Positions 9,776 through 61,912 of a stretch of DNA of 64,000 nt are shown here, in pieces. This DNA is from Nemertoderma westbladi (taxonomy: Eukaryota > Animalia > Xenacoelomorpha): NCBI GenBank assembly GCA_032718475.1, contig JAUCBJ010007186.1:1-64000 (forward strand), in the 5' to 3' direction. Numbering within the stretch: the stretch's first letter is position 1; the number at the start of each line of letters is the position of its first letter. Below the pieces are notes generated by a model. It did not search any database. It was given only the letters and a program-made list of their open reading frames with translations, and was not told the origin of the DNA. Made by a program: the position numbers and the translations under genes.

Positions 9776-10539
9776 ATGTCAGCATGTACAGATCGTCACC
9801 TTCAAGGCAGAACCCCCTAAGTCGATTTTTTTCGATTTTCATGTTTTTGACTTTTTGGGTAATTCGATATCGGCTTTTTCGTCTGGCAGAACCCCGAAGC
9901 TTTTCTACCAGCCATTTTTGAGTTATAAGCCAAAGACAGTTCCCCGTAACTTATGCCCACTTCGAGGCAGAACCCCCCAAGTCAAAAATTGGCTTGCAAA
10001 ACACCGTAAATTCAAGTATATGAAATTCAGTCCACCTGGCAAAACCCCTTAAATCAGAAATAACAACCTGTAAAACCCCTTAAATCAGAAACAATAGCCT
10101 GGCAAAACCCCGTAATTTATCATTTATATATGTTTCCATATACATACATCCGTACATATATATATACAAACCGTATTGCGGCCAGGACACAAATATTAAT
10201 TAGGGACACAAACATTATTGAGGGACGCAAGCATTAAATGAGGGACACAAAACATTAATAGGGCAGGGACGTGAGCTTCGATCAAAGTACCGCCGTTTCG
10301 TATACATTCCATCTTCCTAATTAGATGGAAATTAATTGAAAGCGACGTTCGGTTACGTTGTTCAGCTACCTGTTTTGCTGCTACCCCCCCCCCCCCCCCC
10401 CCCCGGCTGGTATACCCCCATATTTTCAATTTACCTCCTACAACCACCATTCATGTTACATACTGTAATATATTGTATGTGTGTATGTATGTATGAGTGG
10501 TAACATGAATCATACTAAGTGCGTCGGGCGATAGTGCCC

Positions 10540-11700
10540 ATGATTAATGTTTGTGCCCTTGATTGATATCTGTCCCTCGTTTATTGTTTGTGTCCCTCAT
10601 TAATGTTTGTGTATCTCATTAATGTTTGTGTCCCTCATTAATGTTTGTGTCACTCGTTAATGTTTGTGTATCTCATTAATGTTTGTGTCCCTCATTAATG
10701 TTGTGTCCCTCATTAATGTTTGTGTCCCTCATTAATATTTGTGTTCCTCATTAATGTTTGTGTCCCTCATTAATGTTTGTGTCCCTCATTAATGTTTGTG
10801 TCCCTCATTAATGTTTGTGTCCCTCATTAATGTTTGTGTATCTCATTAATGTTTGTGTCCCTCATTAATGTTGTGTCCCTCATTAATGTTTGTGTCCCTC
10901 ATTAATATTTGTGTTCCTCATTAATGTTTGTGTATCTCATTAATGTTTGTGTCCCTCATTAATGTTTGTGTCCCTCATTAATGTTTGTGTCCCTCATTAA
11001 TGTTGTGTCCCTCATTAATGTTTGTGTCCCTCATTAATGTTTGTGTCCTTGATTGATATCTGTCCCTCGTTTATTGTTTGTGTCCCTCATTAATGTTTGT
11101 GTCCCTCATTAATGTTTGTGTCCCTCATTAATGTTTGTGCCCTTGATTGATATCTGTCCCTCGTTTATTGTTTGTGTCCCTCATTAATGTTTGTGTATCT
11201 CATTAATGTTTGTGTCCCTCATTAATGTTGTGTCCCTCATTAATGTTTGTGTCCCTCATTAATATTTGTGTTCCTCATTAATGTTTGTGTCCCTCATTAA
11301 TGTTTGTGTCCCTCATTAATGTTTGTGTCCCTCATTAATGTTTGTGTCCCTCATTAATGTTTGTGCCCTTGATTGATATCTGTCCCTCGTTTATTGTTTG
11401 TGTCCCTCATTAATGTTTGTGTCCCTCATTAATATTTGTGTTCCTCATTAATGTTTGTGTCCCTCATTAATGTTTGCGTCCCTCATTAATGTTTGTGTTC
11501 CACATTAATGTTTGTGTCCTATATCAATGTTTATGTCCCACATTATTGTTTGTGTCCTATATCAATGTTTATGTCCCACATTAATGTTTGTCACCCTGAT
11601 TAATGTTTGTCCCACACTAATGTTTGTGGCGCTGATAAATATCTATCCCTCATTTAATGTTTGTGGCGCTGATAAATATCTATCCCTCATTTAATGTTTT
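10540..11700 (+). repeat. 19-bp minisatellite (CCCTCATTAATGTTTGTGT)n inside the TIR element
   Basis: About 60 units with recurring variants. A short inverted array lies at ~10185-10265. Confidence 0.97.
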
Positions 11701-14948: not shown

Positions 14949-15228
14949 ATGCCTCGGAAGTGCTGCGTGCCAGAGTGTCGGTCAAACTATAAAAACGCCA
15001 CACCATGCAAGGTTTTCCGTATTCCAGGGGAGGAGCCCCATAGATCGTCATGGATTTCCGTATTATCAAAAGTGCGTGCTAATTTGCATGTGACTAAACA
15101 AACCGTTGTTTGTGAACTCCACTGGCCTGAAAACTATGAAAAGCGCCGTGGTTATCGCACAATTAAAATGATTCCAGCAGATCCACCATCTGTGTGGCCA
15201 AACATCGCTCCAAGTTGTACGCCCACGC
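14949..15228 (+). pseudogene. P transposase N-terminal THAP zinc finger, interrupted by a LINE
   Basis: MPRKCCVPECRSNY...FRIP...W...VCELHW...PPSVW matches the THAP C2CH signature. Confidence 0.9.
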
Positions 15229-15244
15229 CCAGCGTGGGCGTACA

Positions 15245-17784
15245 CCTAGGGTTGATGCTTCTAAAGCCACTGGATCGGATGAGATACCGGCAAAGATAAT
15301 AAAGGATGGGTTATCAGTCATTATATCCCCCCTACTGCATATTATTAACCAATCTATAATAACCACTAAGTACCCTACAAGTTACAAGATTGCTCGTGTA
15401 AAGACTGCATATAAAAGCAGTGGTTCGCGACTAGAGAGAGGAAACTTTCGCACGCTCTCATTACTTCCAATAATGTCTAAAATACTTGAAAGAGTTGCAT
15501 TTAACCAGCTACAAGACCACTATATCAATAACAAACTAATAAATAAACTTCAGTCGGGCTTTCGGGAGGGATATTCAACTGAAACGGCATTAATCTTTGT
15601 AGATAGCGCTATTAGAAATGGTATGGACAATGGCAAACTCACTGGTATGGTCACTATAGACTTTCGAAACGGAAAGCCTTTGACTGTGTGAATCACAATA
15701 TATTGTTAGAAAAACTAAAGGCTATGGGCGCTACCGATAAAACAAAAGATTGGTTCGAATCATATCTTTCTGGTAGACAACAGTTCGTTGCTATTGGCAA
15801 CACACGATCGGAGACTAAACCTATTAAAAATGGTGTTCCCCAGGGATCTATCTTGGGAGTTCTACTGTACGAAGGAGACACTAACGACTTCCACATGGTA
15901 ATAGAGGATGACACCCTGGACCCAACCTTTGCCGATGACACAAACTTAATAAAAACCAATGATGACTCAGAATTAATTTCTAAATGTTTGAGTACAACAA
16001 TGGACAGAGTATTCGACTGGTGTGTACAAAATAAACTGACAATAAACTTTGATAAGACCTACAGCATACTCATTGGAACACACCAAAAGATAGCTTCCTC
16101 TCCTGAACTAGAAGTCTATTGTGGTGGGCAACGTATAAAAAATGCAAAATCGGTCACTTACCTTGGCTCCGTGCTAGACCAACATCTAAGTGGGACCGAG
16201 ATGGCCACAAAGGTAATAAAGAAATGTAACAATAGATTGAAGTTTTTACATAGATATGGCGGATTACTAGACTACTATACAAGACGTTTGCTATGCAATA
16301 CACTGATACAACCACATATCGATTACGCCGCATCTACTTGGTTTTACAGCATAACTCAACGCCTTCGTAAGCAATTGGAAGCACTACAGAGGAAATGTGT
16401 TAGATATTGCCTTGGTTACAGTCCTTGTGAACATATCGGAATCCAACACTTCAAATAAATAAATTGGCTCCCTCTAAATGAAAGAATAAAGGCAGTTATA
16501 GCATCACATATGTTTAAAATTGTTAACAACATATCACCCGATTACATGTCAGACCTCGTTAACCTTCGTTGTCAAACACGCTCACTGCGTTCTACTGAGT
16601 CATCAGCTGCGCTCCCCCATTGTACGACAGTTTGCGGCAAGAAAACGTTCACTTACTTGGGCCCAAAAATTTGGAACGAACTGCCTCAAAGCTTAACGAA
16701 CGTGAAAACTTTAGAAGTGTTCAAACACAACCTCAAAGACTACTACCTACAGCAGCTGCTAAGCGAAAATGCAAATGAATACATTTATTATGATTATTAA
16801 TTTATATATAAATAATTAACATAACAAACATTGTATTTTATTGAACTTCATAATTATTTATTTTATAGGCTATATTTTATATATTACAGTGTTTTTATTA
16901 TTGCATTTATTGCTATTTTTTATTGTATTTTTCAGTTACTTTTAGCATTTCATTGGCACCATTCCATTTTCATTACAATTTTGGTGCAAATAATATTGTC
17001 TGCCGCATAGAGCACAGGGACCCTTATGGAAACGAGGTGAAACCTCATAAGGCTATCCCTCCATTTTAATATAATATTGCACATTTTCTACTTGTTTTTA
17101 ATTTTAAGGTTCTACTTGTTTTATTTTTGTCTACCTTGTTTTATTGATGTCTACCTTGTTTTATTTTGTCTACCTTGTTTTATTTTATATACCTTGTTTT
17201 ATTGTATAAAATTATACTGAGACTCCGAGTTAATTTTACTGTACATATGTGATAAGTTTTAAACTATGTGTTCGTATTTTATTGTACCTTGTTAAATAAA
17301 TTTTATTGTACCTTGTTAAATAAATTTCATTGTATGTATGTGATACTACTTTTTAAACTGTAGTTACGTACTGATACTCCGAATTAATTTTACTATACAT
17401 AATATGTGATAAGTTTTAAACTACGTGTTCGTATTTTATTGTACCTTGTTAAATAAATTTTACTGTACGTATGTGATACTACTTTTTAAACTGTAGCTAC
17501 GTAACAGATATATTTTAAACTGTAAATTTTATTTTATTTCAAGTTTAATGTATGTATATACACGTGATTTATTGTAAACTACTGTACAGAGTTAGACCAT
17601 TTATGTTACCTAGGCAAGACAATTTTATTATATAATTTCAAACATGTATTACCATCCATTAATTTACATAATTTACATAAAACAATGTAAAATAAATTAC
17701 CGGTAAATTGTGATTTATATATATTATTTCAGTATTGTGCAGTATGTATTTTTATATGGGAAAAAATTCAATCAATCAATCAAA
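15245..17784 (+). mobile_element. 5'-truncated LINE (L2/CR1 group, Crack-like): RT, ~1-kb 3' UTR and (ATCA)n tail
   Basis: Motifs KATGSDEIP, SLLPIMSKILE, QSGFR...STETAL, GVPQGSILG and FADDT across ORFs 15194-16800 with frameshifts and a stop. Stem-loop CCCTTATG...CATAAGGG at 17021-17053. Tail TCAATCAATCAATCAA. Confidence 0.9.
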
Positions 17785-18236
17785 CCCACGCTAACAACCG
17801 TCCCCGCAACCGTAAACTCGTTGCATCTATGCGATCATTACAGCCGGACGAGTTACCCCAGTTTCTGCAGGGGGATATTGTGACTTATGGATTTATACAT
17901 TTGTTCAAATGTATTCGCAATAACTGGATCCCAAAAAATTGAAAACTATCGAATTTGATGGATGTGTAGCGAAATGGTCCTATATTGAAAATCTTTGAAC
18001 GAGAAAAGGCATCATCAATAAAGATTGCCCATCGATTGACACAGAAGGCAGTGTACCCAAAGCCTATTAAAAGACAGGATGTTTCTGCTATGCTCCGTGT
18101 GTTTTGTGATGAAACTATTGTTGCTCTTCGTACTCACGTTGATCCCACTGATGATGATAAAGAAACCGCAACTTTCATTGAGAAGTTTGTTCGCGCATTT
18201 AAGATACTTAACATTCGCAGTCGCAGTGAAGACCAG
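17785..18236 (+). pseudogene. P transposase middle fragment, internally deleted
   Basis: QPDELPQFL is followed almost immediately by HLFKCIRNNW, then KIAHRLTQKAVYPKPIKRQDV...RVFCDET. Confidence 0.85.
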
Positions 18237-19470
18237 TGTAAAAGCTTTTGCGTAATTAGCCGGTTATTATCCCCGTAAAGTACTCTGTGGTTGGTTTACC
18301 AGGCATAAAAAGGCCGTGTCCTTGCTGTACTGGTGTTTTGGAGGACATAAAAGCCATTTCTTCTGTATTTGTACTTTAGAGGACATAATCTGTAATTTCG
18401 TGACGTAAAAGGCTCGATACTCTTGAAAACAGTGTCGCTACCATGACGACGGCTAACGGCTGATATTGCCACGTTGCAACTTTCTGTATCTGCCAATAGA
18501 ATTTGAGTTAGCCTTGATTTTGACCTATCACAGAGCTACTGAACTGAAATTTTCCTATCTCACTGCTCTTTCTCTGTATTGAACGGGAGCTTCGTGGAAT
18601 AAGGGTAGCTGGTATTCTTATAGTTATTCTTATCAGTGTTGTTGGTGATTCTAAGCCAGGAAGAACGGCTTTAGAGTATTTTGTGCTTTTCTGCTTTAGC
18701 CCTACACTAGTAGGCTTAATTATAAGGACATATATCCGTTATCTGCATACTGCATACTGCATACACTGCATACTGTGTAACACTGTGCATACTTTTATAT
18801 TGTTATACTGCTATTTACTGTCAGTTCTTCATAATATGGTTGATGAATTATTATATTTGGAATAACGACAAATAACCCCGAAAACCCAATATTCTTGATA
18901 TACCGAAGGTAAGAGAGAAGGGTTACAGATAAATGATTGCGACCTATGTTGAGTGGTTTGAAGTGAATCTAATGTTATTTGATAGACCCTACATGATTCG
19001 GTCCGTGTTCCTTTTATATGTGACTAAAATCAGTGAAGATCGGCAGATCAGTGTGCAGTATTGTGCAGCATTGTGTATGAGTGAGACTGATAACGAAGCA
19101 TTTCCTAAAGAATGCGCCATATATGTGAATTGTAACTAAGCCATATCGTTGTGAGTAGTTTAAGTCATAACTCTTTTTATATAGATAGAGCGCCACGTCC
19201 TAAAGGAACTGTTAATATTTCCCGAAGGTGAATAATATTGTCAGAGATTATATAATACTGTCAGTCGAATAATACATTAGGCTTACATAGCAATACGATT
19301 AAGCTGTCGAAATCAATCTCCCGGGTATATCCAATGGGTGAATGATCGCGCACAGATTGGTTTCAACTAGTGTAGTGAATCAAATACTTGTTAGAGGCTA
19401 AAGCGATTTATTATCTAGAAGACATCCTAATTTGGCGGGTTAAACTGCCAAAGGTCTGAAAGCGCGAACA
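18237..19470 (+). repeat. 5' LTR of BEL copy 1 (1234 bp)
   Basis: Near-identical direct repeat of 31625-32871. Confidence 0.96.
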
Positions 19471-19482
19471 ATAACGGATATA
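19471..19482 (+). promoter_or_regulatory. Non-canonical primer-binding site ATAACGGATATA (complementary to LTR 18731-18742)
   Basis: It abuts the LTR end, has no TGG start, and is the exact reverse complement of TATATCCGTTAT within the LTR. Its function is inferred. Confidence 0.6.
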
Positions 19483-21149
19483 GCTTCTTTATTGCAGTAA
19501 GCAATAAAGTTGAAAGTACCGGTAAACCTGAAAGGTACATCTGTAGGTCAGTAGGCCCAACTGCCAGAACCGGTACTGCCGTAGGTCCGTAGGTCCAACT
19601 GCCAGAACCGGTACTTCAGTAGGTCGGTAGGCCTAACTGTCCTAACCGGTACTTCCCGTATAAGTACAGCAGTATTATTCGATTTGATTGTTATATACCA
19701 GTAGGTCTTAATAATTAATCGGGGACGCCTGGTTTTTATTGAGATTTTACTTATTTCTGTCAAGTTTTATTTGTTTGTAGGCCAGTATTGAACAGAAGGC
19801 GTGTAAGCCTGATCAGATTGTACAGACAATTTGTAGGCTGAGCTGTTGTCTGATTGTTGTTAAGTCTGAACGGATTGCAGTATGTGTAGATCACCTGTCC
19901 GATAAAGAACGGTTAGGAAGTAGGGGCAGCGAATGCTGTAAGGTAAACCCCCAACTAAAGAATAAGTCGTACTACTGGGTTAGAACGCATACTACCTAAT
20001 TATTTCGGAGTCTGCATGTCCTGTAGTTTATTTAGGCTTGAGAGTAGTCTGCCATCGTTGAGTCTGTACTTTGTTTGTGTAAGTCTGTACGGGTAGCGTA
20101 TAATATTTATTTAAATAATTTGTAGGCTGGATAGTTGTCTGGCTGTTATTAGGTCTGAACGGATTGCAGCGTGTGTAGATCATCTGTCCGATAAAGAACG
20201 GTTAGGAAGTAGGGGCAGCGAATGCTGTAAGGTAAACCCCCAACTAAAGAATAAGTCGTACTACTGGGTTAGAACGCATACTACCTAATTATTTCGGAGT
20301 CTGCATATACCGTCAGTCAGGGAGATCATCAATTTTGGGGTTACCCCAAATTTCGAATTCTGGTAATAGACTGTCGAAAATTGGGGTTTTTTGTTCAAAT
20401 TTGAGGTATTTTTAGGCTTATAATATCGAGTGTTGCTGCGACTTAGGGAAACTGTTGGAGCAACTTCTACTTTTAATATGTTAAAATATAATGTAAAATA
20501 AGAACTTTTATCGATGCAATAAAATATTTCACCGATGCAAACATGCTTTTATTGGGGGCGAAAATTGAAATTTGAGGTTAAACCTCAAATTTGAGACAAA
20601 ACCTCAAATTTTGCCAGTCTTTACAACATCACCAGCCTGCCAGCAGTAGGGTGTAGCAGTAGGCTTTGCTGCTTAGTGCTTATAGAGCTTGGTGAGAATG
20701 GGTGACCAGTGTAACCTGTGACATGGCATGTATGCAGGGTAGGCTTAACCTTACAGCACAGCAACTTATAGTCAATAACTTCAATGATTGTTAACTCCAT
20801 TAGTGATTGGTGATACAAATGCAGAAGACTAGAGAAATTCGCTATTCTTACAGCCTTACTGTTGGTAAGAAGAACAGTAGACCAAATCCTCACTGTTGCG
20901 AGATTCAAGCTCACACAGCCTGACAGCTGCACAGTCACAGACTCAGGAAGGCCTACTATATCTTGTAGATGTTGAATCAATTCCAGAATTTGGAAGTTTA
21001 CATATTCTGGAATTCATCTGTTCTGTTCATCATTCATATCACACATCTTCGGAAAAAAATATGTTTTCTGGTTGTTGATGTCCTCTTTAAAACTTTGTAT
21101 ATCAAATGAATCCATTCCTCTCCTGACAGCCTGAGGACTTATGTAATAT

Positions 21150-21727
21150 TCGCCTGCCCTAGCTCTATCCAGCTATCTGTCACTTGGAATACTGTACCAT
21201 CATTCTTCCACAGTTTGGAGCCCATTTCTAGACAAATGTTGCCGCAAAGGTTGACGTGGTTTATACAATATATGTGGACTTGATTCTTTTGTTAGTTATT
21301 CTATACGACTGGAGACTCTAAAGTTGGAACCACTACCTACTGCAGTAGGCCTATACATCAACTTCAATTTGATAATGTGCTTTAAACTTATATATAAAGA
21401 TCTAAACCTGATCCGCCATCAGTCCATTACAACAATGTGCAACATCCTCGCAGACTATTTTAATATCCCAGCCAGACATCCAATGCAATCATGACCTGGC
21501 CATATATATAAAATTATGAAGCAAAGGCCATGCCCTGCCCAGCACATCTGCCCATGTCTGCATGTTCCATACATCACCACTTCTTTATCAGGGTCATTAA
21601 CATATGGAACATGCTGGACCTGGAACACAGTAGAAACATAATCATCACTAATCGCTATTCTTTTAAACAGTCTTTAGACTCTGCTTTATTATCAAGACAT
21701 CTGAAATGTTTTAGAAATCTACTGTAA
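21150..21727 (+). mobile_element. Old CR1-like LINE 3' remnant
   Basis: Degenerate LEYC, SYSIRLETLKLEPL, LIMCFKL and HFFIRVINIWNML, resembling CR1 ORF2 C-terminal motifs. Confidence 0.6.
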
Positions 21728-21991
21728 GTGACTGTTTGTTTATACAGTACTATACATACATACATCCTTTTAAATTGACCTTATGAGGAACCAGAATCAT
21801 TTATAACTTGGGCAAAAAGTATAACCTTTTTCACTAACCTATTCTCGAGGCTTTATCTCATCTCTGGAGTACACCTTGCAGGCACTAAAGTTGCATTGTA
21901 ATAGTGTGTAGGGATGGATTTTGCTCAAATTTCGATCAAAAATTTTGATCAACACATTCAATAAAGTTTTAGAAATTCCACCAAAAATATT

Positions 21992-22259
21992 TTGGCACTT
22001 GTGTCAATCAAATAGGTGACCCTCCTCGTCCTCATCTGCTAATCCTGAAATCACCAGCTAATCCTGAAATTTAGTGCAGGTGATATCAATATTCCTTACT
22101 CTTGTTTATTATTTTTTTTGGTTACTTTGAACTCACCTCTGTAACCTGCTCCTTTGCTAACCCTGTAACCGGGCATTAGTGAAAGTGACTTTAGTTTAGG
22201 TGATTTCAGGATTAGCAGATTAGGAGCTAGGAGGGTCCCCTATTTGACACAAGTGCCAA
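21992..22259. mobile_element. MITE-like element with ~60-bp imperfect TIRs
   Basis: TTGGCACTTGTGTCAA...ATCTGCTAATCCTGAAATCACC is mirrored by GGTGATTTCAGGATTAGCAGAT...TTGACACAAGTGCCAA. Confidence 0.7.
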
Positions 22260-24449
22260 TGTTTTATTTTACTTTTTTTACCGGGAGAAAAAGTAAAATC
22301 AATGCAAAATTATGGCTCTATGGTACATCATTATGTGGCAATATTATTCAATATGATTGCAGGTTGCTGTGTTGCCGACTTTGCAAAAGCTGTGCCCAAC
22401 AAAAAGTTACAATATTCAGATATTATGGGGACAACTTTTTCCCTATCAGTAGGGAAAAAAAGTAGGCCTACTACTTTTTCTCCCGATTTTAGGGCATATT
22501 CAAGCAAAAAGTCACAATATAAAAAAATATATAAGTTCTTTAAGCTCTGTACTTCGTTTTGTACGTCTACCATGATCATACCACCCCGCTGCACCCCTAC
22601 CAGTAGCCTTTTTAAGTATAAGCCTTTTTAAACTAATACTGAATATGTTTTAAATATTATATTTCACAACACTCAGACACTAGGCCTACATCAGTTTATT
22701 TTTTTACACTAACAACTAACGCTAACAACTACTGAACTAGGCCAACTATGACTTCTGTCTGTATCTGACTATGCTGCTATGAAATTCAAATTTGGGGTAA
22801 AACTCAAATTTAGAGAATTAACCTAACGTTGTATTAAATTTGAGGTAATTCCAAAATTGGGTCTATAATTTGAAATTTGAGGTATTCTCAAATTTGATGA
22901 TCTCCCTGACTGACCGTAGTTTGTTTAGGCTTGATAGTAGTCTGTCAGTGTTCGGTCTGCATTTTGTTTGAGTAGTTTGTACGCGTAGCGTAATATTTAT
23001 TATTCAGAGTTTATGCGATTATTCGCAACATTCATTCCCCAAGTTTGTTCCTACAGTAATTGTGTTTGTTATACATACCGCTATAGTTAAATTAACCCCG
23101 GTACTACACGGGCTGCTTGGCGTAGGTAAAGACTGGTGATTTTGTGCATCGGTCACTCCAGCAGATGCCGTGGTTCTTTTAGCTGTTCAAGTATATTTAA
23201 CTACTGATTATATGTTATTCAAGTACTCGTACCTAATTTAGGGTTTAGTGTACAGTGCTTTCCGAAAGTAATTAGTGTAGGCATTACATTTGTGGTGTAA
23301 AGTGGTTAATAGGCACGTTCGATTAGCTCTATTAACTTCTAGGTAGGAACACTCCGTGATACATAACGTAGTACCTATAGCGATACGGCTATAGGTCGTC
23401 AGGCGGTGGTATTTTCCTATCTGGACAACGCAGTGTACTTACTACTAAGTATTATTTTCAAATACCGTAGTACCCTGTCCGTTGTAATAACCAGATTTCT
23501 AACCCTTTGTTAGGCTGGTTTGTAGACTTCTTGTAAAATTACCCTAAAAATTAATATTTTGTGTTTTTTGTAAATTTTTGTGTTTATTTAGAGATTGTAA
23601 TCTCACCCGAATTGTACGTAATTTGTAGTATTAAGTAACTTAGGTAAATTAGAATTATTTGTTTTAGTGTCCTATAAGTAACACTTCACTGAAAGCGCAC
23701 CGCTTTGTGTAGTGATTACTCCCCAGAAATAATAACATTTATTTCAAACATTGACAAAACCCATTAAAACGGGTATATATATATTATAAATCAAATCTAA
23801 AGATTTATAAATAGTAGGCCTACCATACAACCATTAGGTCTCCATATCAGTTGGTCTACTGCTCAAATAGCGGTAATAAAGTAAGTAAAGTAACCAAGTA
23901 ACCCTTAAAATTCAGAAATTCAATTATTCTAAAATAATTGACATACCGGTATTTACTATTTACAATAGGCTTATTATATTTATTTCTATAAATTTTAGGT
24001 TGAAATCATACCGGTATTCTGTAATTAATTCTAGTCTGTAATTATACTTATATATATACACTATAAGTGTAAACTGCATACCGGTATTTACGATAGGCCT
24101 ATTATCTTTATTTCTATAAATTTAGGCTGAAATTATACCGGTACTTGTAATTAATTCTAGTCCAGAATTATATATACTACAAACTGTAAGCTGTATACCG
24201 GTATTCCGATAGGCCTATTATATATTTATATATATTTGTGCTAAAATTATACCGGTATTCTGTGATAAACCTAGTCTGTAATAATAGTTATATATACTAT
24301 AAGCATACCGGTATTCTAATATATTATATATATCACGCTACACTGAGTAGCAGTACCGGTAATTAATTACTAGGCTAGCAGTTAATACTGAGTTACTAGA
24401 CTTGCTCAGACTGTAATACAGCAGTAGACATTCAACTGTACACATAAGC

Positions 24450-27400
24450 ATGTCTGACGCAAAGCAGAACCTGTCAGACAGTCTACTAGATACAACCGAG
24501 AGCGAAGTGACAGCAGAGAAACCGCATAAGAGGGATGCCATTGACATCTATCTGTCAGACTATCAACGTTTTTTAGGTAATGACGAGTTGAGGAGAAGGT
24601 TAGAGGGACTTAGCCCTAATAGTGAAGGAACCAAGCTTGTGTTGGATGCCATCGATGTGGAAATGAGGGCTGCGAATCAGGCTAAATTTGATGATCAACT
24701 CCGCCTGACACGAGTCCAAGAAGAACAAGTAAAGAAAAAACGTATAGAAGACAGAAAGGCAGCGGCAGTAGCAGCAGCAGTGGCAGCTGCAGAAGCAGAA
24801 ACAAAAGCGGCAGCGGCAGTGGCAGCGGCAGAGACAAAAGCGGCAGCGGCAGTGGCAGCGGCAGAGGCAAAAGCAGCAGTCTGGCAGTAGCAGCAGCAAA
24901 GGCAGAGGCCGAAGCGGAAAGAAAAGCGGCACTGGCAACAGCAGAGGCAGTAGCAGAAGCCGAACGGAGAGCGACTGAAGAAACCACCCAATTAGAATTT
25001 GAAAACATTCAGGAGAATCAAGACTGCATAAATAAACAGTTAACAGCTAGTAATATGCAGATGATGAATCGATCTACTCCCAAACGACAGGGATATACAT
25101 CATCTGAGGAAGGCGATACCACCGACACTGAAGGCGGAGGAAATCGATCCCGCCTAAGCAGACGTAAAAGAACATTCCACCGTCAGAAATTGCCTGATTT
25201 GCCTCCAGCTGTTAGAAGGCAACTAAATAACACCAACTTAGAGAGTACAGAACCCACAGACCAAATAATTACAATAGAAAGACTCCCTACTATAGTAGAT
25301 GAGCCTGAAATAAGTAGGCCTGTTCTTGAAATCACCCCTTCGGTAATAGATACACCTGTGCTCCCTGAAGCTACCTATAAATTCCCTCTGCATAGCACTA
25401 AGCTACCTGTGCCCCGTAGAACTGCCCAGGAGACAGTTCAGGTCCTGGACCCCGAGCGAAATATTCCAAATTTGTCGCCCGTTGTCCCTCGTCTGCCCGC
25501 TACGACGTTGGCGGATCCCGTTTCGGCGGTTGATTGGGTAGACGAGAGACGGCGGTGGATGGATATTCTCCTCGGAGAGATGAAGGAGAATCGGATACGC
25601 TCCTCCCAACAGGTCCGAGAGTTGGAAGGGACTGTCCAACATTTAAAGGGAACAGTGAGGGAAAGTAAGTTAGAGTTGCAAGAAGTGCAGCAAAATATCG
25701 CGCTAGAGCGCGATAAATTAGTAAATTTACAAAAGGGTATACCACCACCCCCTGTAACAATGTGTCAACCTGTTAGGTCTGAAGTATCGCATGCGCAAGG
25801 TGTGGAACCTACACGCATATATACTGCTAGCGAAATAGAAACTCCTATAGTGAACCCTATTAAGGGTAATTATAAACCTGTTGATAATGATATCTCATCT
25901 AGACTTGATAATAATCCGAGAAACTTATATACCGATAATTCTCTATTCAATAATGCGATGGCTCAAGAAAGTTTTACACGCCAAATGGCTAGAACCGAAG
26001 CCCGACAAGCGGTAAAGGTTGGAGAGATCGTCAAGTTCAATGGAGATGAGATGAAATGGTTACCTTTTAATGAATATTACAAAGATAACATACAGAACTC
26101 TGTACTATCTAATGGAGAGAAACTTAGATTCCTCATCGAGTGCTTGGAAGGATCTCCCAAGTTAATGGCGTTAAAGTTTATTGGACATCCAGACGGATTA
26201 AGACAAGTTTGGGATACACTAAACATCAGGTATGGTAATAGGACTAACATAGCTAGGTATTTATATGCGAAATTAATGGCGCCCCGAAAGTTTCTTAGCA
26301 GCGGGATTATAGAGTTTTCCGATGAGATTCAGGAGATCTGTAGACAACTAGATTGGTTAGGTAAGTCTCATGAATACCAGAATTCTATGGTTGTAGGAGC
26401 CTTAGCATCTACTTTGCCCAAGGGTGGAGTAGGTACACGCTGGGACAAGAAGGTGTTATATATGATGGAACAACAACGACGAGACCCTACCATGACTGAT
26501 CTCATGTCATTCTTAGATAGAGAAGTGAAATTACAGCTCCTAAGGCAGTCCAGAGAGAAGACATTGGAAAACAAGGTAAGTGAGAAACCCGTTTCTAGGA
26601 GAAGGGTAACACCAGTATGTTATACCGACGACGGTGAAAGCCAAACTTCTCAAGGAGAGGACAGCGGGAAAGACACTGACAGATCTTATTATGTCAATAA
26701 AATGCCTAAAGATCAGGTAAGTAAATCCGAGTCTCGACCCAATGACAGAAGGGAACCGGTACAAAAAACCCTTCCTACGTCTCCTAAAGGAATTCAGGTG
26801 AGAAAGCCCGAGGAAAGAACAAGTGTGCACCACATAGCACAGGTTAAAGTAAGTAACATCAAGCCGAAATGTGTGCTGTGCGACGGGCCCCACCGTTTAA
26901 ATGCGTGTGATAAATTCCTGAGGAAATCACTAAAGGATAGACGTGAAGTCATGTGGGATAAGCGGTTGTGTTATAATTGCCTCAGACGAGGACACCAACG
27001 GCGAACCTGTTACTCCGACGCAAGGTGTGCAAAGTGCGGCGCAAAACATCATATCTTGTTGCACACGGAATTCGAACGAAACAGCCCGAGTCAGGTAAGT
27101 GAGTCCGAACTACATGTCCAATTCAGTGATGTGAACGACACTGATCAATCTGAGATGGAAGGATTCTATACGGACGAGTTCTCCGACGAAAACGAATCCT
27201 GTTACTTAATAAACACCACCGCAGTGTATCGAGCACTCATGCATGAGAAAGACACAGACAGCGACCTTACCTTAACTACTTCCGATCAACAACCATCTTG
27301 GAAAGCGCCAACTTCCAATATAAGAATCCGAGAATTTCCTGTAGTCCAGTTACGGGTCCACGGACCTCAGAAGAGCTATATAGTGAACGCCCTCCTGGAC

Positions 27401-28616
27401 TCCGGTAGCACAGGAACATTCATCGATAAAGAACTAGCCGAAGTCATCTTTGCTGGACAACCCAAGTTCCGAACCAAGCTAAACATGTCAGGGATCATGC
27501 AGGTTTGGAATTCTACTGTAGCTGCCGACTATTATATAGGTGAGTTGTCCACTCCACAGGATAAACTAGGAGAATACAGTATAAGGTCAGTAAAAATGGT
27601 GGCAATAAAGAACTTCGCTACCACCCAAGGGGAACCTTATAATTGGGACGAAGATGATCATGCCCAACAACTTAACATCCCTAGATTCGACACCGATTAT
27701 CCTGGAGTACAAATATTAATCGGTCAAAACGCGCATGAGGCGCTGGAGACATTGGAGAAACAACCTGCTCAACCGCAACCACTTCAGACCTATGCGGTAA
27801 GAACTAGAGTAGGTTGGTACCTTACTGGACCTTCCCGTAGAATGCTCAGGGAAAGACTGCTTCAAGATTGCGTCTGCCAGGTGAGTGAATGGGAAGACGA
27901 TACTAGTGAGGGAGACGAACCAACTGAGGGAACACCACACTCCTCAGATAATGACAATCTTAACTCCAATGTAGATCAATGGAGATATTGCCCCAAGACG
28001 ATGAATACAACTGACATCGCTTCCAGAGGAGCAACTCCTCAAGAACTGACAGATACTACAGACCGGTTAGGTGAACCCGACTTCCTGAGTAAGGAGGATG
28101 AATGGTCTCCCCATCTTACTCCGACTGAGATTAGACCAGCCAAGGGAGCGGAGAAAGTCAAACCTAAAACCCGGACGGGTGGATCGGAGTTATTTGAACC
28201 CGGGATAGATCTGTATTCTGTCTGTATTACATATTGCCAGGGACGACGCCGTGGATCTGGACCTCCCCACCGCGAGTGGATCCTTCATGAAGATCAGAGA
28301 GAGCGATTGGAGCTCTGGAACATCAGACGTCTCGCAGGGACTCTCACCTCTCCTGCAGGGAGCGACGGACCACTATAGCTCCTGGAATCAGCTTTGTAAG
28401 GCCGTCGTGTACTTAGAGCGATGTTTCTATCGTCACTATTCCAGGACGAAGAGGAAACCTGGAATTGTATTCGGGATGCAGCGACTCAATCACCCAGTCG
28501 GTCGTTTGTGCTTACCGGAAGGGAATGGAGGACTTTCCGGAAACTGTGGAAGGCAAGATTCTCTTCCCACGACCACCTCCCTAATCCTTCAAACATCTAG
28601 GGACTCCATAACGTAA
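24450..28616 (+). pseudogene. BEL gag-protease of copy 1, frameshifted in the Ala-rich repeat, followed by spliced-together pol remnants
   Basis: ORFs 24450-24890 and 25055-28378 contain KFNGDEMKW (capsid-like), the BEL triple zinc knuckle CX2CX3HX4C/CX2CX4HX4C/CX2CX3HX4H and protease LLDSGS. No YxDD or DDE motif. Confidence 0.92.
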
Positions 28617-31600
28617 CAACATATGGAGTGGGTGTGTGACTCTATTATTTTATATTATTTTATTATTTTTATATTTCTGTATGTATTACTATGTAATTTT
28701 ATTATAATCGTTTTCTTTAATTTTATTCAGTAGAATGTTATTTTAGCGATTATTTAGTAGATTAGTGCAATATATATTCGCGTTTATTATTTAATTACTT
28801 ATATTATATTTAGTGAGACGGCGAAGAAATAATTATTTTTCTCTTTCCTTACTGTCCGTATTATATTATAAATACGTAACTACAGTAAGATGAAATGTCC
28901 GTACTTATTAAAGTACAATAAAGCCACTACTATATTTAAGTATTATTGGTAGGCAGAGTATTAGGAATGCAAAGTTCAGATCCTCGTGTCTCGGCTAAAC
29001 CAAGCTCTGGGTAGACCTTGGAAACGACTTGCCTCTTCACACTGACATTGCTTCGTGCGATATTGCTCTCATACCGTATATTAAATAATACATATAGTAG
29101 CGTGATGTCCCTTTAACAGTAGCGTATAACGCAAAATAAATCTGTTAAACCCTTTGACCATCTGTAATTCTAGTCGATTAAGATATCGCGGCACCCACCG
29201 ATATACTTGAAAGACAAATTCTAGAATCAGTGGTTAACGTCCCCAGACAAGTTCTGGAATAAATCGGTGCCCATCTCAAATTTTAATTATTTAATATTTG
29301 CAAATCTAATAAATCAAAATCTGTAAAATTCAGATCCTTCAACAATTCTAGTCAATTAAGATATCGTAGCATTTACCGATATTCTTAAAAAAGACAATTG
29401 TCATAGAATTAAGGATCTTGTGTCCCTAGACATGTTCTAGAATCAAAATATGTCCATTTAATTATCAAATAATAAAATTTCAGGGAATAAATTTAAATTC
29501 ATGCCTTTTAATGAATTTAATAAATTGCCATTTTTACGCAATTTATAAAGTTCCCAAAATTCCATTAATTAATAGATCAAGGGAGCGGAGATTTATCTTA
29601 TCATGCGTATGAGTGTGTGAAAGTCTCCCAAACATAGTCAATAGCCGATAAAATTCATAAAGTCATGTATAAGACAGAACATTGACTATTAAAGAATACT
29701 ATTAAATAACATCCCAGATCTGTATGCATTGGAATTACCCTAATTCTACCGCTAGCTTTGCATAATGTCACCATAGCAACAACCACGCTAGAATTAGAAT
29801 TGAGTTAAAAGAACAATAGAAAGCTTGTCCCATTGAATAGCATAGGGAATAAATAGCGCACTACTAGTATCCAAGGATACATAATAATACAGTGACATTC
29901 TGGAAGGCATTGACTAACGGACAAATGGCCCGAATGTGTGTAATTTGTGACAAGTTGTGTGTGTGGTATTTGTGAGTTTATAGGTGAATGTTACTGCTAA
30001 AGTGTGTTTACAGTAGCTAGTCGCAATCGTAAAAGTAACCTAACTCTCCAAGGAAAACCTGAAGTACATCTAAGCCTTTGGGACGGACAGTTGAGTGACT
30101 TGTGCCGGTTGTCGTTGTCGTTGTGCGGCTACGTCGTTGGCGAAAGTACAGCGGCGACGACACATCGGCGCTGAGGATCTCGTACTGTCCGGGGGTTGAT
30201 TGGGGTAGGCAGCGACGCCCGCTCGCCTAAATATAAACTCATTATAATATGGATAAACTCATATATAGCAGATATGACGGAGTTGATAGAAGATGGTCTT
30301 GGTATCGGGGAGCGATATACTCTACTTTTACAAGCGTTTGTTGATAGCTTAATACGCGGCGACGTTAGCCCAACTGCTGCGGAGGACGATGGTCGTTATA
30401 TCGAACCGCCAATGTCCCAAGAGCAGCTCGCGCGAGTTGGACTATAGAAAATTCGCTGCTCGATATACGCAGCGTAATGGTACGTATATGGGCTTCTTAA
30501 CTACTGATCATCCTATCGATTTACACAATACGGCTATATATCCTGCCCAGCGGAGTCGGAACCATAAATTGAAATTCGAATGCGAAAATTATATTCGAAA
30601 TCGGCTCGAAAGAAAAGGCATTAAAGAAACAAATAAACGCGGTAACTCCAACATATATTTGGAATTCTTGATAGAAGCATTGTAACAACAAATAAATATC
30701 ACCCGCGTTTACCCTACCAGACGTGCGTCTTTGGTATTATTACGATAAATGCCCTAGACCCAACTAATAAACGGAAAGACATAAACATCCACGTAAACCG
30801 AAACTTGTTGACGTATCACCTATGCTCACTCGGCTCGAACGATCCTGGAGTAAACCTACGATCAGAGTCCCGGAATACTCGGTCAAACCTCCTCATTCCT
30901 TAGTTGGACCTCAGACCTGCGATCCTGGTGGTGTCGCGGATCCTCGCGGACTGTATTCACTGTTCAAAGATCTAGTGCTACCCTAACAATTAATCGGTAA
31001 CACTCCGACAGTGATTTCTAGCTAGCCGCCCATCTTACCTAGCCGGATTGTGACGCGGACACCTAATATCACTATCCAACCGTATGGTCGTCCCCGTTTA
31101 ACGCGATACAACCCCTCATCAAGGTGAAGGAGAGCGTTGTACGAAACGAGTTAAACGCTATTCTATAAAGATCAAAAGGGAAACCTGCGTTTGTTCAGAT
31201 AAACGTAAGTTATAACAGTAAGTCCAATCGATAAACGAATTGGCCTTATCTCAATTCGATTGAGAAATCTCGAATCTCTAAGAAGATATCAAGCTTAGAA
31301 AACCCTATTCTCTGCGAGAGTTTTTGATGAACGTATCCAGCTACGAGCGAAGGAAAATCAGCTCGAGGAGAAGCATATAGAAACGGCGGATACCCCGACC
31401 ATAATCCTACACCTTCTGATGCAATCATATTGCACCCTTCACCCATGATTTATAGCCCTCCTAGTAAAGTGGCTCGCCCTAAAGAGAAAAGGACTCTTGC
31501 TAGCCTCAAAAAACTGCGTAAACGCCGTCTGCGTAAGAAAGACTAACTGTTTAGAGTATCTTTATATTTTAGAAACTGTGATTTGTTATATTTTATAGAC

Positions 31601-31624
31601 TTAAATCCCATTTTCTGGGAGCGG

Positions 31625-32871
31625 TGTAAAAGCTTTTGCGTAATTAGCCGGTTATTATCCCCGTAAAGTACTCTGTGGTTGGTTTACCAGGCATAAAAAG
31701 GCCGTGTCCTTGCTGTACTGGTGTTTTGGAGGACATAAAAGCCATTTCTTCTGTATTTGTACTTTAGAGGACATAATCTGTAATTTCGTGACGTAAAAGG
31801 CTCGATACTCTTGAAAACAGTGTCGCTACCATGACGACGGCTAACGGCTGATATTGCCACGTTGCAACTTTCTGTATCTGCCAATAGAATTTGAGTTAGC
31901 CTTGATTTTGACCTATCACAGAGCTACTGAACTGAAATTTTCCTATCTCACTGCTCTTTCTCTGTGTTGAACGGGAGCTTCGTGGAATAAGGGTAGCTGG
32001 TATTCTTATAGTTATTCTTATCAGTGTTGTTGGTGATTCTAAGCCAGGAAGAACGGCTTTAGAGTATTTTGTGCTTTTCTGCTATAGCCCTACACTAGTA
32101 GGCTTAATTATAAGGACATATATCCGTTATCTGCATACTGCATACTGCAGTACTGCATACACTGCATACTGTGTAACACTGTGCATACTTTTATATTGTT
32201 ATACTGCTATTTACTGTCAGTTCTTCATAATATGGTTGATGAATTATTATATTTGGAATAACGACAAATAACCCCGAAAACCCAATATTCTTGATATACC
32301 GAAGGTAAGAGAGAAGGGTTACAGATAAATGATTGCGACCTATGTTGAGTGGTTTGAAGTGAATCTAATGTTATTTGATAGACCCTACATGATTCGGTCC
32401 GTGTTCCTTTTATATGTGACTAAAATCAGTGAAGATCGGCAGATCAGTGTGCAGTATTGTGCAGCATTGTGTATGAGTGAGACTGATAACGAAGCATTTC
32501 CTAAAGAATGCGCCATATATGTGAATTGTAACTAAGCCATATCGTTGTGAGTAGTTTAAGTCATAACTCTTTTTATATAGATAGAGCGCCACGTCCTAAA
32601 GGAACTGTTAATATTTCCCGAAGGTGAATAATATTGTCAGAGATTATATAATACTGTCAGTCGAATAATACATTAGGCTTACATACAGTAGCAATACGAT
32701 TAAGCTGTCGAAATCAATCTCCCGGGTATATCCAACGGGTGAATGATCGCGCACAGATTGGTTTCAACTAGTGTAGTGAATCAAATACTTGTTAGAGGCT
32801 AAAGCGATTTATTATCTAGAAGACATCCTAATTTGGCGGGTTAAACTGCCAAAGGTCTGAAAGCGCGAACA
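31625..32871 (+). repeat. 3' LTR of BEL copy 1 (1247 bp), preceded by a short PPT-like GGGAGCGG
   Basis: Differs from the 5' LTR by about 3 substitutions and two small insertions (8 and 5 bp). Confidence 0.96.
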
Positions 32872-33760
32872 ACCAGCACTTAAACGACCCACTGCACCAA
32901 CCATTTACAGACTCAAATGACCCACGACTCTCCGAGTTACTGATGCTGGCTAACCAAATCGACTCAATGGATTGCAAAAATAACAACCTTCGCTGTCATA
33001 CTTTTACTATTGATACTGCTAAGGCCATCTCTCATACATTTCGTGGCATTGTACATTTGATTCGCCATTGTCTCAACAATAGTTTTCAATATGTACTCCC
33101 CGGTCAGTTTGCCACCGATCCCCTGGAAAAGACGTTTGGACGGATCCGATAGTCAGCAGGCGGTACTTATTTCATATCTGCAGTCCAGGCAATGCAATAT
33201 TACTCTATACAAAAGACCAAATTAATAACTGCATTGGATCAAGATTTTCTAGATTTTCAATCAACTAGCGGAGCTCATAAATGTGATAACTGTGTTTTCA
33301 TGCTAACCGAAGAGGACGCTGCAGTATTCGATTCCTTGTCAGCCCTTGAGGTTGACGAGTTGGCCTTCGACACAAAGTCTGCTTTGCTATATGTTGCTGG
33401 TTATATACAGCGTTATATTCCCAACGATGATGACGATGACACATACTTTTATGCAATGCAGTTTGGCGGCTTTCTTGGTGAACTAAATCGAGGGAAATTG
33501 GTTACACCATCCGATGCCTTTGTCCAGTTTACATTCTTTGCTTACATCATGTTTATTAGTTTAAACAAGCACAGGCTATGTCGTTTTAGTTTAACCAATA
33601 TTTTTGAAACAATTGCGGATAGTTATTTCGCCCAAGTCGTGCCAAAGGCAGAAAGGAGTGCTGTACCAGACTGTGCAACATATTTCTTAATAATTACAGT
33701 GTATTAGTCACCCCTACAAGCTCTAAGGAAACATCAATTAAAGCAATCAAGTTGTGCTAA
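32872..33760 (+). pseudogene. P transposase C-terminal fragment
   Basis: YVLPGQFATDPLEKTFGRIR*SAGGTYFIS (catalytic Glu motif of P transposases), LLYVAGYI and LNRGKLVTPS. Contains an in-frame stop and a frameshift. Confidence 0.9.
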
Positions 33761-34374
33761 TGATATGTTTTTCAATTAAAGCAATCAAGTTGTGCTAATG
33801 ATATGTTTTATTTATTGCCATACAGTAAAGTTAATTACGTTAAGTGTGAAGTTATCAGGCTAAGTATAAAGTAAAACCATAAGTGTAAAGTTATCACCCT
33901 AAATTTAAAGTGCTGCTTAACAAAGAAAATTTATAATAAATTTTTATTCTAGGGATGGATGTGATTTTTAAATAAGACCAATTTCAATTAATTATAATCC
34001 AGCAGATTAACAGACAAACTGTAATCAATGACATAAAGTTTAATTAAAGTTTCATAACGTATGCATGCATCCTACGGAAAACGTATTTAATGCATAGTTA
34101 TCAGGTTTTGTGATGATGACACCACCACTAATAGTTATAGGTAGGTTATTACAGGTCGGCCGCCAAGTCAGAATCGTACCTGCACGTTGGCTCGGCCTGT
34201 AATATACAGATATAGTAGGCTATGATCCACGGGTACGGATTTGTGATATTACGTACCAATACTGCAATACCGGTACTGACTGACTGACTTCTGGACATAG
34301 GCTAAATAATTACTAGCATCAGCTTGTTAATGTTACAGCTACAAACAGACAAAGGACAGAAGGAACACAGAACA

Positions 34375-36117
34375 ATGAGTTTCCCTTGGCTAAGAAAATC
34401 TAAACGAGTTTTCCCAGTACCGGAAAGCGATACCGAAACCATGGAATCGCCGGCAATTAATTCACCAAAACGTCGGAGAATAGGTAGAGATGAAAAAACT
34501 AATGAGACAATAAAACAAGAGGAGGTCGGCTTAAATAACGAGTATGGAGCTGTAAGTATGAATGACACGGATGGAACTGTAAGTATAGATGGAACTGTAC
34601 CGGTACCGGTGAGTATGGATGGAACTGAAATGTTAATAAGCAGAACTCAACCACATGTTAATGACATCGAGAGACGCCGTGAAGAGAATCTCCGAATAAA
34701 TCGTGAAGTTCTGGCGGAGTTGGGAATCGGTATCGGGAGTACCACCAGGCCTAATCCTGCAAGTCCTAAACGCAAAAATAAACCGGTTAAATACGAGATC
34801 AAACGGAAGGATTATGTGACGGACCATGTTAGTAGAGAGCCGACGAGGAAGTCTGCCAGACTGCAAGGGAAGCCGGTACGGTCTCCCAGTAGTGCGGGGG
34901 AGACAGAAGGGAATAGAACGGGGGGTTCTAGAACTTACAGTTCCACTGCGGTTGTGGATGTTGTACCTTATAACGTACCTTTACCGGAAGTCATAAAGGC
35001 CGAGTGTCTGGAGGTTTCTTACTTAGCGAAGTTGGTTAAAAAGGAAGTGGATTGGGAGGAGTCGTCAAGGACACTGCAGTCTCTTCTCTCGGAGGCGTCG
35101 TTAGCGGAGGCGTACCAGGTTACTGCGACGGAAGAGCGCGCGGTGGATACAGTGGCACGCATCAGTAGTCTCCGAGTGGAAGAGGAGTGGGTCAGGAAGG
35201 TGGTACCCGGTCGCGTGTTCTCATTGGCTTGGTTGGCGACCAATGAGAAGCCGACTGTGGTCGTCGGCGACAAGTACGGCCATCTGGGTGTCTGGAGCGT
35301 CTCGGACGGGGGTGTATACGTGACGCGGCCGCACAGCGGCGCTATCAACTGCGTGCGGTGTCCCACCGAGAAGCCCGATACGGTGTACACGACGAGTTAC
35401 GACGGAACATTCCGTGAGTTCCGGCTGCGTTCTGGACGGTTCCACCGGATGTACGCGGCGGACGCGTTGGTGACCTGGATGGACCGCGTGGACGCGTCCA
35501 CCGTGCTACTGTCGCAACGGGACGGCTGTGTGACGCGACTCGACTTCCGGGAGGCCTCACGTCCCTCAGTCTGGAACCTGTCCGCCTCCGGATTCCGGTG
35601 TGTTTCTGTCTGTCCGGCCGCCGTCCCCCGCTACTTCGCCACCGCTGGCGTCGACGCCACCGTGCGACTGTTTGACCTCCGCTTCCCCACGAAATCCCTC
35701 GCTACGCTCGGCCATGGCCGCGTCGTTAACTCAGCCTTATTTACGCCGCACTCTGGCGACAACCTACTCACCACCAGCGCCGACGACACCGTTAGGATAT
35801 ACGCCACTAGCGGCGTTATAGCGAACCACACTGCTGCCTCGGTTTCTATGAAACACAACAACTATACCGGCCGATGGCTCACTAAGTTCCGCGCGACTTG
35901 GCATCCCAGACAGACGGATCTCTTCGTTATCGGCTGTCTGGACCGGCCCCGTAGAGTCGAACTCTTTAGCAGTCGGGGAGTTCGATTGGCAAACCTGTTC
36001 GACGAGAATCTCACGACGGTTACCTCCATCAACGAGTTCCATCCCTCCCTAGACTACCTGGTGGGTGGAAACTCGTCTGGTAAACTATTTGTCTGGGGAC
36101 CCCAAACTGGGCGGTAA
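34375..36117 (+). CDS. WDR76: WD repeat protein 76 / Cmr1-like chromatin- and DNA-damage-associated WD40 protein, uninterrupted ORF
   Basis: ERRREENLRINREVLAELG in the N-terminus, VGDKYGHLGVW, TTSYDGT, HNNYTGRWLTKFRATWHP and GGNSSGK, recognised as the WDR76/Cmr1 family. The start codon is uncertain; an upstream exon is possible. Confidence 0.88.
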   Translation: MSFPWLRKSKRVFPVPESDTETMESPAINSPKRRRIGRDEKTNETIKQEEVGLNNEYGAVSMNDTDGTVSIDGTVPVPVSMDGTEMLISRTQPHVNDIERRREENLRINREVLAELGIGIGSTTRPNPASPKRKNKPVKYEIKRKDYVTDHVSREPTRKSARLQGKPVRSPSSAGETEGNRTGGSRTYSSTAVVDVVPYNVPLPEVIKAECLEVSYLAKLVKKEVDWEESSRTLQSLLSEASLAEAYQVTATEERAVDTVARISSLRVEEEWVRKVVPGRVFSLAWLATNEKPTVVVGDKYGHLGVWSVSDGGVYVTRPHSGAINCVRCPTEKPDTVYTTSYDGTFREFRLRSGRFHRMYAADALVTWMDRVDASTVLLSQRDGCVTRLDFREASRPSVWNLSASGFRCVSVCPAAVPRYFATAGVDATVRLFDLRFPTKSLATLGHGRVVNSALFTPHSGDNLLTTSADDTVRIYATSGVIANHTAASVSMKHNNYTGRWLTKFRATWHPRQTDLFVIGCLDRPRRVELFSSRGVRLANLFDENLTTVTSINEFHPSLDYLVGGNSSGKLFVWGPQTGR

Positions 36118-36993
36118 ACTGTTTGTCTGGGACCCCAAACTGGGCGGTAAACTGTTTGTCTGGGACCCCAAACTGGGCGGTAAACTGTTTGTCTGGGACC
36201 CCAAACTGGGCGGTAAACTGTTTGTCTGGGACCCCAAACTGGGTGGTAAACTGTTTGTCTGGGACCCCAAACTGGGCGGTAAACTGTTTGTCTGGGGACC
36301 CCAAACTGGGCGGTAAACTGTTTGTATGGGACCCCAAACTGGGCGGTAAACTGTTTGTCTGGGACCCCAAACTGGGCGGTAAACTGTTTGTCTGGGACCC
36401 CAAACTGGGTGGTAAACTGTTTGTCTGGGACCCCAAACTGGGCGGTAAACTGTTTGTCTGGGGACCCCAAACTGGGCGGTAAACTGTTTGTATGGGACCC
36501 CAAACTGGGCGGTAAACTGTTTGTCTGGGACCCCAAACTGGGCGGTAAACTGTTTGTCTGGGACCCCAAACTGGGCGGTAAACTGTTTGTCTGGGGACCC
36601 CAAACTGGGCGGTAAACTGTTTGTCTGGGACCCCGAACTGGGCGGTAAACTGTTTGTCTGGGACCCAAAACTGGGCGGTAAACTGTTTGTCTGGGAACCC
36701 CAAACTGGGCGGTAAACTGTTTGTATGGGACCCCAAACTGGGCGGTAAACTGTTTGTCTAGGACACCAAACTGGGCGGTAAACTGTTTGTCTGGGACCCC
36801 AAACTGGGTGGTAAACTGTTTGTCTGGGGACCCCAAACTGGGCGGTAAACTGTTTGTCTGGGGACCCCAAACTGGGCGGTAAACTGTTTGTCTGGGACCC
36901 CAAACTGGGCGGTAAAATGTTTGTCTGGGACCCCAAACTGGGCGGTAAACTGTTTGTCTGGGACCCCAAACTGGGCGGTAAACTGTTTGTCTG
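36079..36993 (+). repeat. 33/34-bp minisatellite (GGTAAACTGTTTGTCTGGG[G]ACCCCAAACTGGGC)n overlapping the WDR76 stop codon
   Basis: About 27 near-identical units. The first unit is the last coding sequence of the gene. Confidence 0.97.
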
Positions 36994-40250: not shown

Positions 40251-40255
40251 TTTAA

Positions 40256-42776: not shown

Positions 42777-42788
42777 ATAACGGATATA
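42777..42788 (+). promoter_or_regulatory. Non-canonical primer-binding site ATAACGGATATA (complementary to LTR 42032-42043)
   Basis: Same arrangement as in copy 1. Confidence 0.6.
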
Positions 42789-48548: not shown

Positions 48549-48656
48549 GCACTCACCTATGAAAAGGATACAGACAACGACTTCACTCTAACTACTTCTG
48601 AGCGACAACCATCTTGGAAAGAGCCATCTTCCAATGTAGGGATCCGAGAGTTTTCT

Positions 48657-56000: not shown

Positions 56001-56139
56001 GAAAAGGACTCTTGCTAGCTTTAAAAAACTGCGTAAACGCCGTCCGCGCAAGAAAGACTAACTGTTTAAAGTATTTATGTATATTAGAAATTGTGATTTT
56101 GTATATTTTATAGACTTAAATCCCATTTTCTGGGAGCGG

Positions 56140-61500: not shown

Positions 61501-61912
61501 CATGGCCGCAATACAAACCAGTATATAAATGATAATTTACGGGGTTTTGCCAGGTTATTGTTTCTGATTTAAGGGGTTTTACAGGTTGTTATTTCTGATT
61601 TAAGGGGTTTTGCCAGATGGACTGAATTTCATATACTTGAATTTACGGTGTTTTGCAAGCCAATTATTGACTTGTGGGGTTCTGCCTCGAAGTGGGCATA
61701 AGTTACGGGGAACTGTCTTTTGCTTATAACTCAAAAATGGCTGGTAGAAAAGCTTCGGGGTTCTGCCAGACGAAAAAGCCGATATCGAATTACCCAAAAA
61801 GTCAAAAACATGAAAATCGAAAAAAATCGACTTTAAGGGGGTTCTGCTTTGAAGGTGACGGTATGTAAGTAGAATAAAATAAACATACTGTAGTTAACCA
61901 AACTAAACTAAC

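Follow-up and report, generated by a model that had tools for sequence, protein, structure and literature searches.

Own-LTR complementarity at the primer-binding position points to self-priming in a clade of BEL/Pao retrotransposons

The window, a stretch of 64,000 nt, carries two copies (A and B) of a BEL/Pao retrotransposon family, both on the plus strand, and we think it likely from the sequences of these copies and their relatives that the family primes reverse transcription with its own RNA. Complementarity to the element's own LTR, its position after the LTR and its family-specific conservation hold across a whole clade of elements without a TGG-type primer-binding site (PBS). The first-pass annotation had proposed self-priming for the window family; comparison across relatives supports that reading, but makes it a property of the clade and not one special to this family.

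We regard it as likely that a BEL/Pao clade of aquatic animals abandoned tRNA priming. The replacement would be a primer of the element's own RNA, usually built by the spliceosome from two LTR exons, and the window family would be a natural intron-less counterpart (the pre-intron state, if it is the earliest branch). The splice-assembled primer of the relatives is a more striking part of this picture than the window form.

Two copies in the window and the site after their LTRs

The LTR ends of both copies (Table 1) were set by where the 5' and 3' repeats diverge. Comparing 3' with 5', the LTR pair of copy A has 3 substitutions and 13 gap columns and that of copy B has 1 substitution and 1 gap column, and with so few substitutions both copies are recent. 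The encoded proteins are those of BEL/Pao: a DUF1759 Gag and a Pao-type pol (Peptidase_A17, integrase and DUF5641), with the integrase after the RT. The LTRs are of the TG...CA type, accompanied by a purine tract and a target duplication (the last in copy A only). Absent is the tRNA 3'-end PBS of BEL/Pao elements; by protein ancestry, we place the family in BEL/Pao despite this missing site.

In copy B an in-frame stop (48546-48548) splits gag from pro-pol. No target duplication was found in the flanks of this copy. Directly before its 5' LTR, at 40253-41617, 1.36 kb of the element's 3' UTR with the purine tract are found a second time (99.8% identical including the LTR), as either the remnant of a tandem copy or the product of an aberrant plus-strand start. 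The leader of copy A contains a 2.6-kb insertion (20307-22915) that is missing in copy B and has terminal inverted repeats of ~25 bp; it looks like a nested DNA transposon. Between pol and the 3' LTR both copies have a stretch of ~3 kb (53085-56139 and 28485-31624) that contains no ORF of at least 150 aa and is 94% alike between them.

Table 1. Coordinates of the features of copies A and B within the window.
Feature	Position	Strand	Remark
Copy A, whole element	18237-32871	+	ACCAG target duplication at both ends
Copy A, 5' LTR	18237-19470	+	TGT...ACA, 1234 nt
Copy A, 5-bp target duplication ACCAG	18232-18236 and 32872-32876
Copy A, 3' LTR	31625-32871	+	12-mer at 32119-32130
Purine-rich tract ahead of copy A 3' LTR	31617-31624	+
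Copy A, gag-protease frame	24695-28378	+	RT region deleted relative to copy B
Acceptor-like pyrimidine tract and TAG	18675-18699	+	31 nt ahead of the 12-mer in either LTR variant; no clear donor
Arm of a possible second helix, also a TATA-like word	18722-18728	+	too near the 12-mer for a start at 18731
Predicted self-primer 12-mer, copy A 5' LTR	18731-18742	+	predicted cut after 18742
Donor-like GTAAGA	18909-18914	+	in both variants, downstream of the 12-mer
Predicted 8-bp hairpin near the LTR end	19431-19452	+
Primer-binding position, copy A	19471-19482	+	complementary to the LTR 12-mer
Predicted 9-bp hairpin after the PBS	19487-19509	+
Copy B, whole element	41618-57297	+
Copy B, 5' LTR	41618-42776	+	12-mer at 42032-42043; U3-like 5' part different
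Primer-binding position, copy B	42777-42788	+	complementary to the LTR 12-mer
Copy B, gag (DUF1759) and pro-pol (Peptidase_A17, Integrase_H2C2, DUF5641)	44976-53084	+
Copy B, 3' LTR	56140-57297	+	12-mer at 56554-56565

As had been annotated, each 5' LTR is directly followed by 12 nt whose exact reverse complement is present in all four LTRs, and all six coordinates of these segments are exact. The match begins at +1 after the LTR and is exactly 12 nt long in both copies. The first 10 nt after the LTR contain no TGG in either copy, which bears out the claim that a TGG-type tRNA PBS is missing. The chance of such a match had been put at a few in 10,000; here, 3 of 20,000 dinucleotide shuffles of the LTR give a 12-nt match at offset 0 (7 of 20,000 if offsets 0-5 are allowed), and 2 of 12,080 and 1 of 13,285 internal positions match the LTR over 12 nt. 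The PBS/12-mer pair is also the best duplex site in copy A (-17.8 kcal/mol versus -15.1 for the next best).

The two LTR variants have unrelated U3-like 5' parts (18250-18485 versus 41631-41793) and ~89% identity downstream, with high similarity beyond ~18780. The 12-mer is indeed identical in both, as the annotation had stressed, but this is weak evidence, the 12-mer being the end of a 39-nt identical block (18704-18742). An indel-rich short tandem repeat that differs per variant occupies 18743-18780, from the predicted cut site onward, and may be due to slippage or be a trace of strand transfer.

We found no primer spanning an exon-exon joint in the window family. The contiguous 12-nt match beats the best spliced match, which is 9 nt in copy A and 11 nt in copy B, both with poor splice sites. 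In one contig of sequencing run X1 (depth 8.5) the 12-mer is preserved; the sequence ahead of 18695 is unrelated, a third version of the upstream part, and 14 nt are inserted immediately behind the 12-mer. As a single-contig observation, from contigs whose RNA origin is only a guess, this is a hint. The same contigs contain no joint at the donor-like 18909, again with RNA as a guess.

Primer sites of the relatives

With the RT-RNase H region as query we obtained BEL/Pao proteins of 38-44% identity; those that are named belong to cnidarians, echinoderms, a nemertean, amphioxus, and a fish. Aligned sequences, 41 in number, were then used to retrieve 79 loci from metagenomes (out of the best 80 of 538 confirmed) and a further 46 from a genome collection. 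A direct repeat flanks the RT in 53 of these 125, and the 18 elements with a readable LTR 3' end were kept and the other 35 left out; the LTR ends were read by eye and five were shifted by 1-3 nt. A search of viral contigs found no relative. The 46 genome-collection loci (L080-L125) are animal-type BEL/Pao elements inside a prokaryote collection, and are probably host animal contigs binned into MAGs.

Six of the 18 relatives have TGG within 10 nt of the LTR end and 12 do not. We scored pairing as the longest exact match of the post-LTR sequence to the element's own LTR, contiguous or across any GT-AG interval. The own-LTR match is 10-15 nt in 11 of the 12 non-TGG relatives, 10 of them across a GT-AG joint and one contiguous, and is 3-7 nt in the six TGG elements. 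L050 has a contiguous match of 11 nt. In L080 only 8 bases match exactly, with one mismatch breaking a longer helix. Each of the eleven matches is equalled by at most 7 of 400 internal 30-mers. Counting the window copies, 13 of 14 non-TGG elements match their own LTR over at least 10 nt, compared to 6 of 178 cross-family pairings. L044 and L046 are one family and L081 and L082 are sisters, which makes the independent count about ten.

The predicted LTR introns are 67-451 nt long and have pyrimidine-rich acceptors and donors with 5-6 of 6 consensus letters. Seven elements have a single best joint, and their donors also have 5-6 of 6 letters, though donor strength was not a search criterion; the donor score served as a tie-breaker only, in three elements.

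Compensatory changes, a check suggested in the first-pass annotation, are present among the relatives: two pairs between the sisters L002 and L030 and one between L048/L003 and L019. All of this covariation comes from relatives at ~40% RT identity, with none within the window family. L081 and L082 were tried as a further compensatory pair and not counted, each PBS matching the other LTR over 11 nt via weaker donors.

These comparisons bear on two explanations in which the match has nothing to do with priming by the element. The first is a chance inverted repeat, or a one-off copying accident in the window family. A long, AT-rich LTR and a 12-mer that does not vary in the family would suit such an origin; it is effectively refuted by the rarity of the match among the shuffles and by the relatives, where 11 of 12 non-TGG elements and none of the six TGG elements show this relation. 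In the second, the PBS pairs with an internal piece of a host tRNA, or with another host RNA, and its match to the LTR is a coincidence. Copia lineages with half-tRNA priming are known, according to the accessible text of PMC6317226. We consider this explanation very improbable for the window clade, where the PBS varies by family and each version matches its own LTR or splice joint; in addition, 18000-24500 contains no Rfam match. ARAGORN found no tRNA in the window and three in all loci, too few for a PBS comparison.

A blind scan found spliced matches in 37 of the 80 loci of the in-group and in 4 of the 20 of the out-group (three best hits per locus), a result that we take as support only, with an in-group label that took in loci absent from the tree and with hits in L010, L015, L057, L058, L078, L083 and the out-group that are probably away from LTR ends. 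More families of this layout turned up in the scan, and in the seven loci whose LTR start was found independently, the joint is inside the LTR. L095:4910-5385 has a clean splice-joint match of 12 nt that follows TCA and is 4.5 kb upstream from the RT of an out-group element; the match possibly belongs to a neighbouring element of the self-priming type.

Three RT trees group the window family with the non-TGG elements, apart from all TGG elements (support 100; 100/99; 100/100). A placement of the window lineage as sister of all spliced families has support of 97/92 under LG+G4 and collapses under a mixture model (where the row is flagged as long). L050 and L045 (which has one 11-nt contiguous match) nest among the spliced families, so that intron loss seems recurrent. 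One LTR of L050 has an acceptor ahead of the primer's 3' half, and in its other LTR the primer is contiguous; the donor is off the contig, the LTRs are 88% alike and the contig may be chimeric. The intron-less form of the window family would be either one more loss or an older state.

Predicted folding and a model of priming

Both hairpins that had been reported to flank the PBS are recovered in the predicted fold (Table 1), and the 141-nt region containing them has a folding z of -1.88 only. A possible second helix of 7 bp (18722-18728 with 19486-19492) competes with the 9-bp hairpin. With it, the window duplex is predicted to consist of an end helix, a small loop and the second helix, at -20.3 kcal/mol. 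The design of end helix, loop and second helix is common to most relatives, with predicted energies of -16.3 to -28.2 kcal/mol in the spliced ones. The primer end is 728 nt from the PBS in the window, versus 44-216 nt in spliced relatives.

In every non-TGG family the distance from the LTR end to the start of the predicted helix is 0-4 nt, which is within the range of TGG sites in the tRNA-type relatives (0-7 nt). This coincidence of position argues against a reading in which the pairing is real but serves regulation (of packaging, dimerisation or export, or as a splicing switch) and priming is done by a protein or some other molecule, as does the lack of any other PBS in the non-TGG elements. 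The competition between the second helix and the hairpin looks switch-like, as a regulatory role would have it; on balance we judge this reading unlikely.

For RNA starts 0-12 nt ahead of the 12-mer, the predicted probability of the helix is 0.96-0.99. In copy A it is 0.98 for a start at 18700, 0.43 at 18710 and at most 0.08 at 18690 or earlier, and in copy B it is 0 for starts at 42001 or earlier; with longer 5' ends a rival helix with 19089-19134 takes over. Thus, for the helix to dominate the predicted ensemble of either copy, the RNA has to start no more than ~30 nt from the 12-mer. Folding therefore mildly favours the start near 18731 that the first-pass annotation had suggested, but a fold of 800 nt is unreliable. 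The caveat raised there also holds: a TATA word is missing ~30 nt before the 12-mer, and transcription directed by the TATA-like word at 18721-18727 would start downstream of the 12-mer. The idea of an intron ending at 18699 that masks the primer until it is spliced found no support: shuffled upstream sequence also abolishes the predicted helix in 36 of 40 trials, and copy B also loses the helix when the RNA starts at its own acceptor.

The same primer sequence could instead act in trans, supplied by short transcripts of 5' or solo LTRs much like an element-made tRNA. An element-encoded tRNA-like primer has reportedly been proposed for a C. elegans Cer element. In most relatives each LTR has a donor, an acceptor and a polyadenylation signal, enough for a short RNA, and the in-cis fold over 728 nt is fragile in the window. 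Priming in trans nevertheless appears quite unlikely, given the in-cis helix that both copies are predicted to form from a start near the 12-mer and the precedent of Tf1, which primes from its own 5' end (accessible text of PMC7175516).

Under self-priming in cis, the transcript would start in the 5' LTR, at or upstream of 18731, and 18731-18742 would anneal to 19471-19482. The RNase H of the element would cut after 18742 to leave a 3'-OH, as in Tf1. Minus-strand DNA would then copy 728 nt back to the cut and jump to the 3' repeat, and a polyadenylation hexamer downstream of the primer end would leave the repeat needed for this strand transfer. Such a hexamer is present in copy B and in 10 of 12 non-TGG relatives; the LTR of copy A contains neither AATAAA nor ATTAAA.

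In most relatives, the primer would exist only once the LTR intron has been spliced out. Because this intron is upstream of the predicted cut, we infer that progeny inherit it from the 3' LTR, which would explain both its retention and its occasional loss; splicing of the 3' LTR copy would give intron-less LTRs. Six of the 12 relatives have TATA words 36-240 nt ahead of their donor or primer. The primer may therefore be internal and not the very 5' end of the RNA, and a start upstream of 18731 would be compatible with self-priming.

Known systems and other features of the window

Self-priming is described for Tf1, Tj1, Tf1/sushi elements and Tcn1 of Ty3/gypsy in the accessible parts of PMC7175516 and PMC4600332. 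According to the former, Tf1 primes from the 5' end of its own RNA (the first 11 nt), and the RNase H cut gives the primer. As in Tf1, the complement of the element's own LTR directly follows the LTR end in the window family, and complementarity is kept by compensatory change in the relatives. The domains and relatives are BEL/Pao, not those of a Ty3/gypsy chromovirus pol, and the window element is thus one that would work like Tf1 but outside the Tf1 group. It differs in superfamily from Tf1 and Tf2 of S. pombe, Tj1 of S. japonicus, Tf1/sushi and Tcn1, and its loop is 728 nt. Most of its relatives would assemble the primer across an intron, whereas the accessible text of PMC7175516 describes none for Tf1.

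The plant Ty1/copia TAR lineage (Houba, Osr-1) is similar in that self-priming has been proposed from PBS-LTR complementarity (PMC6317226, accessible text). It belongs to the copia superfamily, unlike the window clade, and the same text mentions no splicing. Fungal GalEa copia elements and bivalve TRIMs also have no canonical PBS and have hairpins near the site; they differ in having inverted repeats within the internal domain and no LTR-derived primer assigned, as far as the available portion of PMC6934838 goes.

The window family resembles the Belpaoviridae of the ICTV in its LTRs, gag and pol with BEL/Pao domains, purine tract and 5-bp target duplication. The ICTV describes an 18-nt PBS for host tRNA-Arg or tRNA-Gly (PMC8742986), unlike the window clade, which has no TGG; TGG sites are found in six distant relatives. 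As a lead only, the subclade may be Suzu-like: Suzu has aquatic hosts and about 30% identity to other clades (PMC3118150, accessible text).

The primer terms searched for are absent from the available text of de la Chaux and Wagner (PMC3118150), Copeland et al. (PMC554778), a mollusc survey (PMC6238403) and Llorens et al. (PMC2774666). The accessible parts of PMC3601003, PMC6934838, PMC13524379, PMC12451622 and PMC8220671 contain no case of BEL self-priming. More generally, we found no paper on BEL/Pao self-priming or a splice-built primer among the titles and abstract openings of the openly accessible literature.

If the self-priming reading is true, BEL/Pao would become a third LTR superfamily with tRNA-independent priming, in a widespread animal clade, contrary to what the ICTV describes for Belpaoviridae. 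With self-priming also proposed for copia TAR, BEL/Pao would be at least the third such group. A splice-built primer would link the onset of reverse transcription to the RNA processing of the host, and the elements would presumably escape tRNA-fragment silencing at the PBS. The intron-less window family offers a natural comparison for what the intron adds. For annotation, own-LTR complementarity provides a rule for BEL elements where PBS finders report nothing.

The window has several features in addition to the two copies. Between them is a 603-aa frame with WD40 beta-propeller matches (34306-36117). Two overlapping frames with RVT_1 matches at 15167-16458 are a separate broken retroelement. 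Tandem arrays with units of ~33 nt and ~19 nt are found at 36069-36993, 10184-11700 and 59730-61870, with the 19-nt unit inverted at two places. A frame on the minus strand at 57400-57927 has a match to Ulp1-type Peptidase_C48.
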